Shown in pieces: positions 3,525 through 22,102 of a stretch of DNA of 24,897 bases. The translations under genes were made by a program, and so were the position numbers. Under the pieces are notes generated by a model. The model was not told where the DNA came from, did no database searches, and was given only the letters and a program-made list of their open reading frames with translations. How positions within the stretch are numbered: the stretch's first letter is position 1; every line of letters begins with the position of its first letter. Source of the stretch: a virus (Duplodnaviria > Heunggongvirae > Uroviricota > Caudoviricetes); the IMG/VR virus record IMGVR_UViG_2547132278_000021, positions 1 to 24,897 of that record, one strand, 5' to 3'.

Positions 3525-3847
3525 TACTCACCACCATTGCCGTACAGCGTTTCAGCCGCTGATTTTTCTACATCCCCGGAAACAGGAGCGATCGCCATAT
3601 CAGTGATCTGCAGATCGGCGCTGCGATTAACACCATCGTCAGTTTCTCTGGCAGACAGGCCTCGAATAACAGCCTTTGCAGTTATCATCACTTCTGTTCC
3701 GACGCCCTGAGGTTGCGCCTTCAGCTTATTCAATGTGTCGTTATTAAGAGTGATGCACAGCCCCCACGGGTATTCATCGCGAGTTCTGGTTTCTCCGCTC
3801 TCATCCTGGTAGCTGTCAGTGCCGGTTTTGAGGTTTACGAGTTCCAT
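3524..3847 (-). CDS. Hypothetical small virion/head-completion protein (107 aa from ATG 3847)
   Basis: ORF in the structural operon; ATG at 3847 preceded by AGGAG with 5-nt spacing. Track start 3853 is a GTG two codons upstream. Confidence 0.5.
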   Translation of the reverse strand: MELVNLKTGTDSYQDESGETRTRDEYPWGLCITLNNDTLNKLKAQPQGVGTEVMITAKAVIRGLSARETDDGVNRSADLQITDMAIAPVSGDVEKSAAETLYGNGGE

Positions 3848-3897
3848 ATACACTCCTGCAATAAAGGGGCCGAAGCCCCTTGTCTGATTCGCGAGGC

Positions 3898-4233
3898 TTA
3901 CACGCCCAGTTCTTTACGCTTATCTGCGATCTTCTCGCGGAGCGTTTCGGCTTTGGCGTTATGGTGTGGCTTCTCGTTAAAGAGCAATTCGTACTCTTCA
4001 CGGAGCTTATCCAGTTCACCATCATCTGACACATCATTGATGATTTTGGTGCTGGTTGCTGCCATAGACACCTTTCCTGCTACCTTTGCTTTTGCCTGTC
4101 TGGCTGCATCGTTAACAGGTTCCAGTGCGCTACCAGGCTCACCTTCGTATTCGATTTCTGCCCCCTCCGGCCACAGAGTGTTATGGATATGAGAGAGGCG
4201 CAGAACGCGGTATCTTGGTTTCTCACCTGACAT
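3898..4233 (-). CDS. Hypothetical small virion protein (111 aa from ATG 4233)
   Basis: ATG at 4233 preceded by AAGGTGA with 5-nt spacing; track start 4242 is a GTG. Lies between capsid and tail genes. Confidence 0.5.
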   Translation of the reverse strand: MSGEKPRYRVLRLSHIHNTLWPEGAEIEYEGEPGSALEPVNDAARQAKAKVAGKVSMAATSTKIINDVSDDGELDKLREEYELLFNEKPHHNAKAETLREKIADKRKELGV

Positions 4234-4243
4234 CAATATCACC

Positions 4244-4681
4244 TTAACCGGTTACTTTTGAGCGGATCGGATACGGCGTATTGGCATCAACATCAAGACT
4301 GATACCCGCAGTGAATTCGCCAGCCGTTAGTGGGCCAGTTGCGACGGAGTAGTTAACACGCAGATATCGCTGAACACCGGCAGGAACCTTTGCAGAAACA
4401 ACTCGTTTACCTGCTGTCAGGGCGGTCTTTGCCAGTGCACCACTATCATAAATAGTGGTCCATGAGCTGTTATTCTCACTCGTCTGCAACTGGATGTTTA
4501 CAGTTGCCTCACCACTTGCCGTGGCGGCTTCGTTAACCAGCGCCCAAAACTCAAGCGGGTAACCCACGCCGATATCACGACGTTTTCCGTCAATTGGACC
4601 GAGATCGATTACGTCAGTAGAAGCCGCGGTATTCGTAACCGCCTGAGCTTCGGAGAACATCAACAGTTTGTCGGTGATCAT
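4244..4681 (-). CDS. Hypothetical virion protein (145 aa), possible capsid decoration/accessory protein
   Basis: ORF immediately downstream of the major capsid gene; Gly/Thr/Ala/Val-rich composition. Function inferred from position only. Confidence 0.45.
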   Translation of the reverse strand: MITDKLLMFSEAQAVTNTAASTDVIDLGPIDGKRRDIGVGYPLEFWALVNEAATASGEATVNIQLQTSENNSSWTTIYDSGALAKTALTAGKRVVSAKVPAGVQRYLRVNYSVATGPLTAGEFTAGISLDVDANTPYPIRSKVTG

Positions 4682-9052: not shown

Positions 9053-9129
9053 GTGGCATTAGCTCAGTTGGACAGAGCAACCGCCTTCTAAGCGGTTGGT
9101 CGCAGGTTCGAATCCTGCATGCCACGCCA
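9053..9129 (+). tRNA. tRNA-Arg (anticodon TCT, decodes AGA)
   Basis: 77-nt cloverleaf folded by hand: acceptor GTGGCAT/ATGCCAC, D stem GCTC/GAGC, anticodon stem ACCGC/GCGGT with loop CTTCTAA (U33, TCT, A37), T arm GCAGG-TTCGAAT-CCTGC, discriminator G, encoded CCA. Confidence 0.9.
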
Positions 9130-15711: not shown

Positions 15712-16512
15712 TTACTTGATAAATCCTGCCGCCTTTCCCCGCCTGTATTCCTCCATCAGCCACTGCGCCGGTGTTATTCCCCCAAGGGTGGCGGCGTTAG
15801 GCATGCACCCGAAACTTCGCCCTGGTGGATGGTAAACGTCTCTCCCTGTGTCCGGAGGTGTACTCATGGGCTCTGGCTTTGCCTGTATGCTGATCACCGG
15901 ATCGGGTATCTGCTGTCCGGAAGCCACCTTTTTCGCCCAATCATCGAGCAGCCTGCGCGCGTGTTTCTCAACCTCAATCTCGCTAAGCTGGCGCTGATAC
16001 ATTGCACGGCGGGTATCACATACGACCCAGTACATAACCGGATGTCGCCACGGGAATCTTTCGGGACCACCAGGATATAAACTTTTTTCCTTGCTGTACC
16101 GGTGAAACTCCGCCATCACATCGTCAATGGTGACGCCAAGAACCATCTTGCTGTCTTTGCACCACTTGATAAATTGCCCTGGCGACGGCCAGAACGGAGA
16201 TTCACTGGCGCGGGCGTGGCGCATACCAGCAGAAACCTGTTCACGGGTTCGGATCCCCCCTTCGGCAAACGCAGCAATCCACTGCTGTTTTGCAGCAACT
16301 TCCTGCTCTGGCGTCTTCAGGTTGGTTACCACTGCCGCCGGAAACAGTTGTTTCAACTGTTTGAAAAGGGCATCAACAAGCCTCTCTGCTGACATGTTCA
16401 CCACATTGTCATTGTTGACGTACTGATGCTCATAACCTGACATGCGAGAAAGGGCTTCTCCGTCACGGTTTTGTATCGCGGTAAAAACGTTGTTCACAAG
16501 AAATCCTCCCAC
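15712..16512 (-). CDS. Lambda P-like replication protein (helicase loader), 266 aa; start codon uncertain
   Basis: QWIAAFAEGGIRTREQVSAGMRHARASESPFWPSPGQFIKWCK parallels the lambda P core (QWVLAFRENGITTMEQVNAGMRVARRQNRPFLPSPGQFVAWCR, recalled from memory). Track start is a GTG overlapping the O-like gene 3' end. Confidence 0.8.
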   Translation of the reverse strand: MGGFLVNNVFTAIQNRDGEALSRMSGYEHQYVNNDNVVNMSAERLVDALFKQLKQLFPAAVVTNLKTPEQEVAAKQQWIAAFAEGGIRTREQVSAGMRHARASESPFWPSPGQFIKWCKDSKMVLGVTIDDVMAEFHRYSKEKSLYPGGPERFPWRHPVMYWVVCDTRRAMYQRQLSEIEVEKHARRLLDDWAKKVASGQQIPDPVISIQAKPEPMSTPPDTGRDVYHPPGRSFGCMPNAATLGGITPAQWLMEEYRRGKAAGFIK

Positions 16513-17357
16513 GCTTCAGGGCTGTTCCAGTGCGGAACGTTGTTATCAGGTAATGTTGATTGCTTCTGTCTGCTAATCTGCAGCCGCCTTGCCAGCTTCT
16601 GCTCCCACTGTGCCTGATGGTATGCCTTACCCTCAGCCATCCAGTAAATTCTGAACTCTGCAAGTTCCTGTGCCGTTGGCAGACTGTCCAGGTAGATTCC
16701 CTGCAATGAGCTTTTCCGAAGAAAGTCATCTGATGGCTGCCATTGTTCATGCATGACAAATTTGCCTAATTGCCCTGGCCCACCAGGAGGAACAAAGTTA
16801 TTCATCACGGCGTTGTTTGCGCCGGGGTCATGAGGCACAGAATCCCCGGTTTTTGTCCTGCTCTCCCTCTCTTGGTTAAATGACTGGTTATATGACTGGT
16901 TCTGGATCCCGTTTTTGGGATCATTCAACATCCCGTTTTTGGGATCATTCAACATCCCGTTTTTGGGATCATTCAACATCCCGTTTTTGGGATCATTCAA
17001 CATCCCGTTTTTGGGTATATTCCCGTTTTCGGGAACATTACCGTTTTCGGGTTCATTACCCCCTTCCCGGTTGCCTTTAATGTTCCCTTTTTTGGTTATA
17101 TTAAGAGAGAAAACCCGTACTCTTTTCGTCGCCCCCTTTCTCTCTCCGGTATCTGAAATAAGCCCCATTTTCATGAGCGATATAAGCCCGGCCTGCACGG
17201 TTTTTTTATTCAGGCAAGTGTCTTTAACGAGGCGTTCTATGCTGGGGTAGCAGAGGTTATATTCATCGGCTCTGTCAGCCATCGAGAGCAGTATGAGCTT
17301 TAATGACGAGCTACCTGGATCTGTCTCCCAGGCCCAATCTGTTGCATGTCTGCTCAT
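16494..17357 (-). CDS. Lambda O-like replication initiator (287 aa) with internal origin repeats
   Basis: N-terminal winged-helix-like region (LKLILLSMADRADEYNLCYPSIERLVKDTCLNKKTVQAGLISL), central PKNGMLND repeats encoded by the iterons, and a C-terminal domain. GGAGA Shine-Dalgarno before ATG 17357. Confidence 0.8.
   Translation of the reverse strand: MSRHATDWAWETDPGSSSLKLILLSMADRADEYNLCYPSIERLVKDTCLNKKTVQAGLISLMKMGLISDTGERKGATKRVRVFSLNITKKGNIKGNREGGNEPENGNVPENGNIPKNGMLNDPKNGMLNDPKNGMLNDPKNGMLNDPKNGIQNQSYNQSFNQERESRTKTGDSVPHDPGANNAVMNNFVPPGGPGQLGKFVMHEQWQPSDDFLRKSSLQGIYLDSLPTAQELAEFRIYWMAEGKAYHQAQWEQKLARRLQISRQKQSTLPDNNVPHWNSPEAWEDFL
16906..17001. repeat. Candidate replication origin iterons: four perfect 24-bp direct repeats (ATCCCGTTTTTGGGATCATTCAAC), with degenerate copies to ~17060
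   Basis: Seen directly in sequence. Each unit carries an ATCCC...GGGAT dyad. Location inside the initiator gene mirrors lambda ori. Confidence 0.75.
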
Positions 17358-18108: not shown

Positions 18109-18693
18109 ATGAAAAGTATCCAGGACGTCCGCAGGCAAAATCTCAACGACTTGATCGACCGTGAATTCAATGGTGTTCAGACGCGGATGGCAGAAAAACT
18201 TGGAACTCAGGCAAATCTGGTAAACCGCTGGGCTCTTGGCAAGAAGGTTATCGGCGACCAGGTTGCGCGAAAAATTGAAGCTGCCGCCAATAAACCACGT
18301 AACTGGCTTGATATCGATCGCTCGCTTTCTCAAGAAGGTTTTCAGCCTGTCGGCCCGAGTGATATAGGTCAGCTGGCTGCTCACAACCTGGAACGCTGGA
18401 TGAGCGAAAGCCGCGACCTTTCAACGCAGGGAAAACTACACCGCGCATCCGGCGTCGCCCAGGTGACAATCAGCCGCCTGTTAAACAATGAGGTCAGCGT
18501 TTCCATTTCCACCCTGGAGAATGTTGCATCCGCATTCGGGCGTCATGGCTATGAATTACTGATTCACCCGCACGACCCTGCGACTATCAACTATGACCGC
18601 TCGCGCTACGCATTGTTACCCGAAACCGAGAAAGCAAAGATCGAAAGTTACATTGAATTTGTCATCAACCAGAACGAAAAAAGCAAACAATAA
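18109..18693 (+). CDS. Phage immunity repressor candidate: tandem double-HTH (XRE-type) protein with no LexA/S24-like cleavage domain (194 aa)
   Basis: Two HTH-like segments (TRMAEKLGTQANLVNRWALGKK and LHRASGVAQVTISRLLNNEV); divergent from the early-right operon; followed by a strong terminator. Confidence 0.65.
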   Translation: MKSIQDVRRQNLNDLIDREFNGVQTRMAEKLGTQANLVNRWALGKKVIGDQVARKIEAAANKPRNWLDIDRSLSQEGFQPVGPSDIGQLAAHNLERWMSESRDLSTQGKLHRASGVAQVTISRLLNNEVSVSISTLENVASAFGRHGYELLIHPHDPATINYDRSRYALLPETEKAKIESYIEFVINQNEKSKQ

Positions 18694-18713: not shown

Positions 18714-18739
18714 AAGCCGCCTCATGGCGGCTTTTTTAT
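18714..18739 (+). terminator. Intrinsic terminator after the repressor gene
   Basis: GCCGCC-TCAT-GGCGGC followed by TTTTTT. Confidence 0.7.
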
Positions 18740-18750
18740 TGCCGAAAAGA

Positions 18751-18827
18751 TTACCTTGCAGGTAATTTTTTTAACTCATATCTATTGACATCAAACCAGA
18801 TACGCATAATTATTACCCCAACGGTAA
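18751..18827 (+). promoter_or_regulatory. pL-like promoter-operator cassette: operators TTACC-TTGCA-GGTAA (18751-18765) and TTACC-CCAAC-GGTAA (18813-18827) flanking -35 TTGACA (18785-18790) and -10 AATTAT (18808-18813)
   Basis: Consensus -35, 17-bp spacer; the proximal operator begins at the last base of the -10; operator centres 62 bp apart. Confidence 0.65.
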
Positions 18828-18846
18828 CAAGCCGAGGTAACAAGTT

Positions 18847-19008
18847 ATGCAGTGGAAAATCATCAACGGTTGGTACTGCGTTACTGCATGCGGATTCATG
18901 AGCTGGAAGTTCCGCACCTTACAGGAAGGCATTAAGTGGGCTTTCGTCAGCAAAGAAGCTCGCGATGTGGCCAACGATAACGAGATATGGGAGGAGGTTA
19001 GCAAATGA
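18847..19008 (+). CDS. Small Trp-rich protein (53 aa), first gene of the early-left operon; not in the ORF track
   Basis: ATG 18847 with GAGGT Shine-Dalgarno 8 nt upstream; stop TGA overlaps the next gene's ATG (ATGA). Translation MQWKIINGWYCVTACGFMSWKFRTLQEGIKWAFVSKEARDVANDNEIWEEVSK. Confidence 0.5.
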   Translation: MQWKIINGWYCVTACGFMSWKFRTLQEGIKWAFVSKEARDVANDNEIWEEVSK

Positions 19009-20039
19009 GTGAATTATCAATCATCGAAATCACACCAGACATGGCACCAAGAATTTACGTTGAAAAAGGGCTGGAAAAGTTTCTCGAGCAGATCCGTGAA
19101 GGTGTTAATGAAGTGCCTGACATTAGCACAGACAAAGGCAGAAAGCGCATTGCATCTCTGGCTGCGAAGGTTTCAAGAAGTAAAACAGCGGTAGAAAAAC
19201 CAGGACGTGATTATCTTAAACGCCTGAAAGAACAGCCGAAAGTAGTTGAAGCAGAGTTACGACGCTTCGTAACCGAATGCGATCGGCTTCGTGATGAAGT
19301 ACGCCGCCCACTCACCGAGTGGGAAAATGCTGAGAAATTACGCACTGAAGCACTGCAACAACGCCTGACAAATTTGCGAGCACTAGCTGACGTGATCGAT
19401 CTCTCCGGAAACTACTTGCCATCATCTGACATTCAGGAACGAATTCAAGAGGCTAAATCAGTAGCACTTGATGAAAGTTGGCAGGAGTACGCAGCAGAAG
19501 CTGGAGTAGCCAAGGATTCAACCATCCAGAAACTGGAAGAATCACTCGCAGTAGCTCAAAAACGCGAGCATGAAGCCGCTGAGCTGGAGCGACTTCGCAA
19601 AGAAGCGGAGGAAAAAGCGCGCATTGAGCGAGAAGAGAATATCCGCCGGGAAGCTGCTGAACAGGCCAGGCTCGAAGCTGAACAAAAAGCGAAAGCTGAA
19701 ATTGAGGCTGCGGCACGCCTGGCGGCGGAAGAAAAAGCACGTGCTGAAGTAGCAGAACGTCAGCGAATTGAAGCAGAGCAGCGTGCACGACGCCAAAAAG
19801 AAGAAGCCGTTGCCGAGGAACGCCGACGCCAAGAGGCGGCAGAAAAAGCCCGCCTTGACGAACAGAAGCGTATCGCCGACGAAGAAGCGCGCCGAGCTGC
19901 AGATAAAGAGCATCGCCGTACCGTTAACCGCAGAGTAATCGCAGATCTGATAGCCCAAGGCATACCCGAAGAATTCGCGCAGAAAGCAATGTTGGCTATC
20001 GCTGGCGGCAAAGTGCAGGACGCGTATATCAAATATTGA
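19005..20039 (+). CDS. Hypothetical coiled-coil protein (344 aa) of the early/recombination operon
   Basis: Strong GGAGGAGG Shine-Dalgarno; ~110-aa N-terminal domain, long E/A/R/K-rich heptad region, short C-terminal domain. Confidence 0.6.
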   Translation: MSELSIIEITPDMAPRIYVEKGLEKFLEQIREGVNEVPDISTDKGRKRIASLAAKVSRSKTAVEKPGRDYLKRLKEQPKVVEAELRRFVTECDRLRDEVRRPLTEWENAEKLRTEALQQRLTNLRALADVIDLSGNYLPSSDIQERIQEAKSVALDESWQEYAAEAGVAKDSTIQKLEESLAVAQKREHEAAELERLRKEAEEKARIEREENIRREAAEQARLEAEQKAKAEIEAAARLAAEEKARAEVAERQRIEAEQRARRQKEEAVAEERRRQEAAEKARLDEQKRIADEEARRAADKEHRRTVNRRVIADLIAQGIPEEFAQKAMLAIAGGKVQDAYIKY

Positions 20040-20046
20040 GGTGGGT

Positions 20047-20346
20047 ATGAACGTTAATCAGCAGAAAAATCTTCAAAAAATCATGCTGGCATTCGACAAG
20101 GACTACCGCCTGTCAGAACAGCTATATGACCGACAAGTTGAACTGATCGATAGCATCCGGCTTCATCAACTGGCCTCAACTTTTGACGCTGTAACAGGCA
20201 AAGGAGTTCGCCAGGAAGTGCTGGAGGCAGCTAAAGACAGCCCTGAGTTCGAAGAACTGATGGATGCCTACCGGCGCGAGGCAATGGCAATTATCGCCCG
20301 CTGGGATCTGGCGGATCGGATTGATGGGCAGAGGGAAGCGGCATGA
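20047..20346 (+). CDS. Hypothetical protein (99 aa from ATG 20047)
   Basis: ATG follows GAGGTGGGT; stop overlaps the RecE-like start (ATGA). Track start 20041 is a GTG. Confidence 0.5.
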   Translation: MNVNQQKNLQKIMLAFDKDYRLSEQLYDRQVELIDSIRLHQLASTFDAVTGKGVRQEVLEAAKDSPEFEELMDAYRREAMAIIARWDLADRIDGQREAA

Positions 20347-21164
20347 AACCGGGAATTTATTTCGACATCAGCAACGAAGACTACCACGCCGGTGACGGCG
20401 TGAGTAAGTCGCAACTGGACATGGTTGCCAAGAATCCGGCGCTTCTTAAATGGGTTCAGGCAGCACCAGAAGACGAAGAGAAAAAGTCTGCACTGGATAT
20501 GGGAACCGCATTGCACTGTCTGCTTCTGGAGCCTGGAGAATTCGACAAACGCTTCATTGTTTCACCGAAGTTCGATCGTCGGACGAAACAAGGTAAAGCT
20601 GACGAAGAAGCATTTCTTCGTGATGTAGCGGATATGGGGATTACGGTACTTGATGCCGAGCAGTGGCGGAAACTGGAGCTGATGCGTGATAGCGCAATGG
20701 CTCACCCGGCGGCACGCTGGATGCTGGAAGCACCTGGTTACTGCGAAGCATCAATGTACTGGAATGATGAAGAGACTGGTGAGTTGTGCCGCATTCGTCC
20801 AGACAAATGGCTGAACGAGCACAACGTGATCGTCGACGTGAAAAAGGTTGCAGATATGGACCGTTTTGCACGCCACATCGAGGAATTCCGCTACCACGTG
20901 CAGGACGCAATGTACCGCGAAGGCGCAATGAGGGTTACTGGTCAGCCGCATGGTTTTTTCTTTCTTGCCGTGAGCGAAAGCATTGATTGTGGTCGGTATC
21001 CGGTACGCGTGTTCGAGCTGGATGCGCAGGATGTCGATGCCGGGCACGCTCTGTTCCGCCGGGATCTGAATACCTATCACGAATGCCGCATCAATGATGA
21101 ATGGGGCGGTGTGGAAATCATTAAACGCCCTGAGTGGGCACGCAAACAGGATATGTACATATGA
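20343..21164 (+). CDS. RecE-like exonuclease (exonuclease VIII C-terminal-domain type, PD-(D/E)XK), 273 aa
   Basis: N-terminus MKPGIYFDISNEDYHAGDGVSKSQL and nuclease motifs ...RIRPDKW...IVDVKKV; immediately upstream of and coupled to recT. Confidence 0.65.
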   Translation: MKPGIYFDISNEDYHAGDGVSKSQLDMVAKNPALLKWVQAAPEDEEKKSALDMGTALHCLLLEPGEFDKRFIVSPKFDRRTKQGKADEEAFLRDVADMGITVLDAEQWRKLELMRDSAMAHPAARWMLEAPGYCEASMYWNDEETGELCRIRPDKWLNEHNVIVDVKKVADMDRFARHIEEFRYHVQDAMYREGAMRVTGQPHGFFFLAVSESIDCGRYPVRVFELDAQDVDAGHALFRRDLNTYHECRINDEWGGVEIIKRPEWARKQDMYI

Positions 21165-22102
21165 GCAACGACATCGCAAACATCAACGCACCAGTAGACA
21201 CAGCAATCGCTGGAACTGCTGCAACTATTTTCAGCCCAGACGGCTTGAACCAACTGATGAAATTCGCCGAGGTAATGGCGCAAAGCCGCGTAACGGTACC
21301 GGCGCACCTCGCCGGGAAACCAGCTGATTGCATGGCCGTGGCAATGCAGGCTGCGCAGTGGGGAATGAACCCGTTTGCCGTGGCTCAGAAAACCCATGTT
21401 GTGAACGGCACGCTAGGTTATGAAGCCCAATTAGTAAACGCAGTTATCTCAACGATGTCGCCAACAAAAGATCGCATCAACTACGAGTGGTTCGGGCCGT
21501 GGGAACGAGTGATCGGTAAGTTTGTTGAGAAAACATCCAAAAACGGCAATCCATATATCGCACCAGGCTGGACTCTAAAAGACGAAGAAGGCTGCGGTGT
21601 TCGCGTATGGGCAACCATGAAGGGCGAGGATCAACCTCGAGTGCTTGAGTTAATGCTGTCTCAAGCACAGGTAAGAAACTCCACACTTTGGGCCAGTGAT
21701 CCGAAACAACAACTCGCATACCTTGCGACAAAACGCTGGTCTCGCCTGCACTGTCCTGACGTAATCATGGGCGTCTACACCCCAGACGAATTACAGGAAA
21801 CGGCACCGCGCGTTGAGCGAGACATTACTCCGCAAACGACCACTGCTGCGGGAATGAACAGTCTGATCAACGCTAAACCAGCGAAAAAGCCTGATGAGCA
21901 AACGCGTAAATCGGACGGCCGTGATCCAGAAGAAATGCTGATGGCCTTTACCAGCGCAGCGATGAATTACAGCACTGTCTCCGAACTGGATAAGGCTTAC
22001 AAATACATTGCACAAAAACTTTCAGATGATGACGAACTGCTGACAAAAGCCACCGACGTTTACAGCGTTCGTCGGGAAGAATTAAACGAAACATCTATGT
22101 AA
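21161..22102 (+). CDS. recT: RecT-family single-strand annealing recombinase (313 aa from ATG 21161)
   Basis: Conserved region CMAVAMQAAQWGMNPFAVAQKTHVVNGTLGYEAQL. ATG 21161 overlaps the RecE-like TGA; the track's earlier start 21134 lies inside the upstream gene. Confidence 0.75.
   Translation: MSNDIANINAPVDTAIAGTAATIFSPDGLNQLMKFAEVMAQSRVTVPAHLAGKPADCMAVAMQAAQWGMNPFAVAQKTHVVNGTLGYEAQLVNAVISTMSPTKDRINYEWFGPWERVIGKFVEKTSKNGNPYIAPGWTLKDEEGCGVRVWATMKGEDQPRVLELMLSQAQVRNSTLWASDPKQQLAYLATKRWSRLHCPDVIMGVYTPDELQETAPRVERDITPQTTTAAGMNSLINAKPAKKPDEQTRKSDGRDPEEMLMAFTSAAMNYSTVSELDKAYKYIAQKLSDDDELLTKATDVYSVRREELNETSM

Follow-up and report, generated by a model that had tools for sequence, protein, structure and literature searches.

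A very short open reading frame lying between a phage repressor gene and a set of recombination genes poses two questions, namely whether it is a gene at all and, if it is, what its product might do when the phage turns to lytic growth. The frame lies in a 24,897-nucleotide stretch of viral DNA (IMG/VR record IMGVR_UViG_2547132278_000021, positions 1 to 24,897; hereafter the window) and an earlier note on this DNA had described it as an unannotated Trp-rich ORF of 53 aa with a good Shine-Dalgarno sequence, coupled to the next gene by ATGA and placed at the head of an early-left operon where lambdoid phages encode small host-targeting proteins such as Kil. The description of the frame itself stands. 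It opens with ATG, runs for 53 codons plus a stop and is preceded by the ribosome-binding sequence given in Table 1, and its product (MQWKIINGWYCVTACGFMSWKFRTLQEGIKWAFVSKEARDVANDNEIWEEVSK, 53 aa) contains five tryptophans, with nine aromatic residues in the 53. Four of the tryptophans (W3, W9, W20 and W31) are kept in 15-20 of 20 diverse alleles and W48 is not.

That the frame was unannotated is true of the ORF track used for the earlier note, with its 60-aa cutoff, but not of the GenBank, RefSeq and PGAP records. The gene appears in public records as a hypothetical protein, as Orf44 of phiv142-3 (QGF19649.1, 53 aa, one substitution relative to the window copy), as phiV10p39 (YP_512294.1, 50 aa) and as epsilon15 gp37 (NP_848245.1), and PGAP likewise calls a hypothetical protein at this site in E. 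coli genomes. The PHROG 898 profile matches the protein with E=3.2e-38 (130 bits), residues 1-49 aligning to positions 1-49 of the 50 in the profile. Over the same residues identity is 98-100% to the copies in E. coli phages and about 79% to the epsilon15 copy, and the ZX5 copy is identical. The phage copies of PHROG 898 share family, length, genomic position and operon with the window gene and only the last 3-4 residues differ, the window protein ending in EEVSK and that of phiV10 in G because a gene for a 344-aa protein has been inserted behind the window copy. Gene, family and position are already catalogued in public annotation and in PHROGs and no new entity is added here. What the present analysis does add is the proof of selection for coding, the correction of a strand assignment in Enterobacter phage Tyrion, an operator and promoter map of the window, the invariable linkage of the gene to the repressor gene, a mosaic junction in its last codons and the exclusion of several simple explanations.

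The earlier comparison was with lambdoid phages, to which this phage does not belong. Megablast of the region, together with the phage records, assigns it to the genus Uetakevirus, temperate podoviruses of the phiV10/epsilon15 type, with 95.6% identity to Escherichia phage phiv142-3 across the whole 501-nt query. The region was found in 557 of 5426 complete E. coli genomes, or roughly one in 10, and the small gene also occurs in prophages of Salmonella, Klebsiella, Enterobacter and Citrobacter. Elsewhere in the window the prophage contains a tRNA gene (9053-9126; Rfam RF00005, 73 bits), as phage ZX5 also has one tRNA (PMC9782041), and a DnaT-like replication protein of 287 aa (16494-17357, minus strand) that carries four tandem NDPKNGML units and related NGN(V/I)PENG units.

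Table 1 Features of the early region and operator-motif sites in the window
Feature	Coordinates	Strand	Details
Rep repressor gene, 194 aa, two HTH regions	18109..18693	+	Pfam HTH_3; PHROG transcriptional regulator
Intrinsic terminator-like hairpin and T-run	18714..18733	+	End of repressor transcript
Operator O1 (predicted)	18751..18765		TTACCTTGCAGGTAA; TTACC-N5-GGTAA palindrome, upstream of -35
Sigma-70-like promoter (predicted)	18785..18813	+	Consensus scan only; TTGACA at 18785, 17-nt spacer, AATTAT to 18813; 10/12 consensus matches
Operator O2 (predicted)	18813..18827		TTACCCCAACGGTAA; overlaps -10 and start region
Shine-Dalgarno sequence	18834..18838	+	GAGGT, 8 nt ahead of the small-gene ATG
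Small gene, 53 aa, PHROG 898	18847..19008	+	Core residues 1-36, variable tail residues 37-53
Mosaic junction	18994..19008	+	Within the last codons of the small gene
344-aa charged coiled-coil protein, PHROG 1376	19005..20039	+	Optional
101-aa protein, PHROG 856	20041..20346	+	Gam/GamL slot of other relatives
RecE-like PD-(D/E)XK exonuclease	20343..21164	+	DUF3799 type
RecT annealase	21134..22102	+	Longest-ORF coordinates; annotated start in phiv142-3 slightly further in
Operator-motif sites	8716, 11842, 11860, 15598, 15660, 17654, 17991, 18039, 18751, 18813		TTACC-N5-GGTAA, at most one mismatch

In order to judge whether the frame is coding we looked at the pattern of substitutions in nine phage loci in which codons 1-49 align without gaps. 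Variable sites numbered 15, 17 and 29 at codon positions 1, 2 and 3 respectively, and 6, 3 and 12 within codons 1-26, for which the Nei-Gojobori method gave dN/dS ratios of 0.01-0.30 at near-saturated dS values of 0.2-2.5. Across 107 related loci the gene is represented by 25 alleles, every one of which starts with ATG, and an SD-like sequence precedes it in 99 of 104 relatives. Conservation in related prophages had been proposed as a check on the frame, which proved to be open in 106 of the 107 loci. The exception is locus L088 (IMGVR_UViG_2851949629_000006), where a CAG to TAG change places an amber codon at codon 2, making this allele a natural knockout of the small gene.

An ORF on the opposite strand (18813..19004) shares third positions with the small-gene frame, and in Tyrion (L004, 2405-2617, minus strand) the antisense ORF is annotated as BI095_gp39 instead of the plus-strand gene. 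The antisense frame is interrupted by stops in five of 12 loci (phiv142-3, L009, L010, L012 and L015) whereas the plus-strand frame is open in all 12, and on the strength of these stops we reject the antisense ORF as a real gene; the Tyrion annotation looks like a strand mis-call. An RNA element or attenuator was also considered and rejected. A search of the region around the small gene matched no Rfam family; the hairpin into which the start codon can be folded (-18.6 kcal/mol) is not better than those of shuffled sequences (z=-1.5) and its 3' arm has changed in epsilon15 and Tyrion; the Trp codons do not stand in tandem but are spread along the gene, and there is no attenuator terminator behind it. 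Taken as a whole these results make it near certain that the small gene is genuine and that selection acts on the sequence of the peptide.

Upstream of the small gene lies the gene for Rep, which is annotated as the repressor in phiv142-3, phiV10 and epsilon15, and the phiV10 record has a rho-independent terminator at the place equivalent to that of the hairpin in the window. Between hairpin and small gene the predicted promoter is bracketed by the two predicted operators, which are spaced 62 bp apart, and a similar two-operator geometry recurs with a spacing of 62-63 bp in all relatives examined. The RefSeq record of epsilon15 gives three repressor binding sites of the form ATTACC-N5-GGTAAT between the repressor gene and gp37, and both O1 and O2 show this palindrome. 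Within the window the motif occurs at 10 sites against 0.43 expected, an enrichment of about 20-fold, mostly in intergenic control regions and including a second pair 62 bp apart (15598/15660), and it outlines what appears to be a Rep regulon of at least five control regions. The Rep protein of relatives of this phage represses the phage as a tetramer, which an antirepressor dismantles (PMC9638917, summarising work on SPC32H), and in ZX5 over-expression of Rep shuts off lytic transcription, the Rep/Ant pair controlling the lytic switch (PMC9782041). The small gene would thus be silent in the lysogen and would be the first cistron transcribed from the promoter after derepression or infection, in keeping with the earlier note, which had placed it first in the early-left operon on what we find to be a predicted repressor-controlled promoter.

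With a view to establishing how closely the small gene is tied to its neighbours, all fetched loci were scored with an HMM of the small-protein family. The gene is present downstream of Rep in 80 of 80 loci with a near-identical Rep and in all 10 loci with a full-length Rep homologue at 41-74% identity, the latter from Superficieibacter, Erwinia, Pseudescherichia, Pseudocitrobacter, Buttiauxella, Klebsiella, Citrobacter, Scandinavium and one Pseudomonas-labelled contig. Every locus with a full-length Rep therefore has the small gene, across nine or more host genera, and by this scoring it was absent from five loci only, in which just the N-terminal HTH of Rep had matched. The contig labelled Pseudomonas lundensis I31 (L104) carries a complete enterobacterial-type locus of Rep, small gene and recombination genes, and its host label could reflect contamination or an unusual host range. 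Distant members of the family (42-57% identity) have the same order of Rep, small ORF, an optional gene for 326-348 aa and a protein of 94-101 aa, continuing downstream with exonuclease, annealase, an AlpA-like gene and eventually the integrase.

The genes behind the small gene are exchanged. The 344-aa gene, named 'coiled-coil domain-containing' by PGAP, may be present or absent: it is missing from phiV10 and epsilon15, and related genes for 326-348 aa occupy the same place in some of the distant relatives. The PHROG 856 protein that follows in the window alternates with Gam or GamL in other loci. In L009 the next gene (3819-4106), overlapping the small-ORF stop, encodes a true homologue of lambda Gam (PF06064, 46.8 bits; 32% identity to lambda Gam, E=3e-12), and in L016 the same slot (4240-4524) was assigned to GamL by a precomputed Pfam hit, although a repeat Pfam scan returned nothing at E<=0.01. 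The PHROG 856 protein of the window has only weak similarity to the Gam of L009 (E=3e-4); it may act as a RecBCD inhibitor, whether divergent or analogous. Further downstream two unrelated exonuclease/annealase pairs are found, that of the epsilon15 type occurring in L003, L100 and L105. A single RecE-RecT fusion is encoded in phiV10 (L002, 3649-5409) in comparison with the separate exonuclease and RecT of the window and of phiv142-3.

The point of exchange in the window can be placed within the small gene itself. Similarity to phiV10 stops after 18994 and the alternative 3' end encoding EEVSK carries both the ribosome site GGAGG and the overlap that serve the inserted 344-aa gene, the TGA of the small gene sharing ATGA (19005-19008) with the ATG of the 344-aa ORF. 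The ATGA coupling described previously is thus correct for the window but is not a trait of the family, being limited to alleles that precede the 344-aa gene or a similar one. Of 100 loci, 72 have a 2-nt gap between the small-gene stop and the next start codon, 21 have a 4-nt ATGA/GTGA overlap and seven have a gap of 4-8 nt.

An alignment of 19 members of the family has five invariant positions (M1, G8, T13, G16 and F33) and a further six that are near-invariant (W3, V12, S19, K21, W31 and A38); one more distant allele, that of L099, has Glu in position 8. Residues 1-26 are nearly invariant across phages of E. coli, Salmonella, Klebsiella, Enterobacter and Citrobacter, the Rep proteins of which are only 41-45% identical to that of the window. 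From residue 37 onward there are at least three versions of the tail with dN/dS between versions of about 0.5-2, and the final residues depend on which gene comes next. In one E. coli allele of 59 aa (P0001) nine residues of the conserved core, WYCVTACGF, are duplicated in frame; this is a single record and may result from an error of assembly or sequencing.

A transmembrane helix or single-pass membrane peptide can be rejected, as the hydrophobicity is insufficient in all 19 members (Kyte-Doolittle 19-residue maximum 0.2-1.45; summed Hessa free energy +5 to +14 kcal/mol). Position 7 is occupied by N, D or E, and Gly follows at position 8 in 19 of 20 diverse alleles, a pattern that argues for a turn at this point and not a membrane helix. 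A Cys-based metal site is likewise rejected, both cysteines being lost in distant members (C11 to Y, F or L and C15 to S or G). The alternation in M18-S-W20-K-F22 suggests a beta strand at residues 17-22, and the spacing of L25, I29, A32, F33 and K36 suggests an amphipathic helix over residues 25-38. AlphaFold2 models had pLDDT values of 59 (23-sequence alignment) and 55 (a cleaner alignment of 19 sequences) with contradictory topologies and were unusable. Searches against Pfam (including E<=10 for the 19 members), NCBIfam, PADLOC and PDB sequence profiles gave nothing usable, the best PDB match, to a membrane segment of TRPML2 at E=0.12, being attributed to chance. When 1.84 billion representative proteins were searched exhaustively with a profile, only 18 matches were returned, all to the same narrow family. 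Full-text searches of the literature found no functional study of the family and the ZX5 paper is silent on the small gene (PMC9782041).

What might such a protein do? The reading that we favour, with a probability of about one half, is that of a small soluble early effector that is made only on derepression and binds a protein at the onset of lytic development. The two halves of this reading are not equally sure: that this is a real early gene is close to certain, that its product is an effector is much less so. In the lysogen Rep bound at the two operators that bracket the promoter would keep the operon off, and upon infection or upon removal of Rep by the antirepressor the operon would be transcribed. 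The strong Shine-Dalgarno sequence would then see the small gene translated, and ribosomes would pass straight on to the next gene, the start of which lies between -4 and +8 nt from the small-gene stop. The product would be an aromatic-rich and probably soluble protein of about 50 residues, in which the conserved N-terminal 36 residues would form the functional part with the C-terminal tail free to vary, and its most likely action would be the binding of a conserved partner as lytic development begins. It is the near-invariance of the N-terminus, in the face of Rep proteins at 41-45% identity, that points to a conserved partner and most simply to one of the host, which would fit better than a phage partner that co-evolves. 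Strict linkage to Rep could alternatively point to a partner among the phage's own components, or could reflect co-inheritance through physical proximity alone.

The consequences differ with the nature of the partner. The small gene would provide the first product once these prophages switch on, in a protein whose N-terminus is under very strong constraint. Were it a host-directed effector, for instance of division, a nuclease or a protease (as an inhibitor), it would represent a new sequence family among the small phage proteins that reprogramme enterobacteria; were it a component of the switch it would extend the Rep/Ant model developed from SPC32H.

A phage-directed regulator belonging to the immunity module, binding DNA or protein and acting on Rep, a Cro-like protein, the operators or the integrase and att sites so as to commit the switch, is an unlikely alternative. 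The small gene always keeps company with the Rep gene and the operators while the genes downstream are swapped, and the sole recombination junction mapped is at its 3' end, which leaves it on the immunity side. There is in addition a weak resemblance between residues 12-22 and residues 29-39 of the phage's own integrase, over one beta-hairpin (VTxxGxxS[WF][KR][FY]) of the PF13356 arm-type DNA-binding domain of P4-like integrases. It was examined with a 121-sequence profile, with shuffles and with unfiltered HMMER, and its score lay above those of 300/300 and 198/200 column shuffles. Its hhalign probability is nevertheless only 2.4-2.9%, over 11-12 columns, with at most 5 bits in unfiltered HMMER, and the match was picked post hoc with no gain from a more diverse profile. 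The Pfam scan of the family gave no PF13356 match, and the small protein lacks the third strand along with most of the domain. Homology to the arm domain is accordingly unsupported, in view of the low probability, short alignment and post hoc choice, and what is left is resemblance at the level of the hairpin. HTH, RHH and Arg-rich motifs are all absent from the small protein, and an N-terminus that is almost invariant while Rep diverges to the extent seen here is not expected of a partner that binds Rep. A more elaborate version, in which a beta-hairpin-plus-helix module, possibly derived from the integrase arm-binding domain, is always inherited with Rep and the operators as a third component of the immunity switch and acts on the operators, the att arm sites or Rep/Ant to make derepression irreversible or coupled to excision, seems to us very improbable.

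It is quite unlikely that the protein is instead an accessory of the recombination module, acting for example by modulating a host nuclease or SSB or by helping the exonuclease and annealase. The small gene does always lead an operon of Gam-like, exonuclease and annealase genes, to which it is translationally coupled, but it remains the same where an unrelated exonuclease/annealase pair has been substituted and where the Gam slot has switched family. Such swaps of partner behind an unchanged small gene make a specific partnership with any one of them unlikely.

No better placed is the reading closest to the earlier note, a Kil-like inhibitor of division that would block the FtsZ ring or another division step and cause filamentation when expressed alone, and we regard this too as doubtful. 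The gene is small, early and, in relatives, immediately upstream of a Gam-type gene with exonuclease and annealase, as is lambda kil. A sequence relationship to Kil was not borne out, with an hhalign probability of 0.2% against lambda Kil and no PF06301 match at E<=10 in any of 19 members, leaving position as the sole argument. This missing homology is not decisive, since no sequence similarity exists among the kil genes of lambda, Rac and Mu either (PMC3961180). Against the positional argument is the fact that the lambda PL region encodes several small proteins with other functions.

Finally, a peptide with no function of its own, that is a translated leader feeding ribosomes onward or a frame that stands in for an RNA element or antisense ORF, is hardly credible, for although the next start codon is always tightly spaced, a hairpin can form at the start codon and the Tyrion annotators chose the opposite strand, the strong purifying selection on amino acids amid many synonymous changes contradicts a pure leader or coupling role, and the antisense stops, the negative Rfam search, the poorly conserved hairpin, the scattered Trp codons and the missing terminator weigh against the others.

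Comparison with the early-left operon of lambda shows where the likeness holds. Lambda has the order cIII, kil, gam, bet, exo, with kil overlapping gam (see also PMC3961180), and lambda Kil (PF06301) is a 47-aa inhibitor of division whose action depends on FtsZ/ZipA (PMC3961180). Like kil, the small gene belongs to a repressor-controlled leftward early operon, lies upstream of gam, exonuclease and annealase functions and overlaps or abuts its neighbours. A PL-type location next to gam is seen in L009, while in the window the 344-aa gene intervenes and the PHROG 856 gene occupies the gam slot. The position ascribed to the gene in the earlier note is thus Kil-like with respect to what lies downstream but not with respect to the promoter, the small gene being first in its operon whereas in the lambda PL operon N comes first and kil lies far from the promoter, after N, ral, ea10 and cIII. 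The likeness to Kil in position proved closer than had been expected, yet it is an analogy of position only. As for lambda CIII, hhalign gave a probability of 0.5% and the Pfam scan, in which lambda Kil scored 72 bits against PF06301 and lambda CIII 105 bits as positive controls, gave no PF02061 match, so that Kil and CIII are both rejected as homologues; unlike for lambda CIII, no CII-type partner was identified in the window. CIII (PF02061), a 54-aa inhibitor of FtsH, does share with the small protein a similar size, an early-left operon and a probable amphipathic helix, and the effector that we favour would fall into the same functional class as the small accessory proteins of lambda PL, namely Kil, CIII and Ral.
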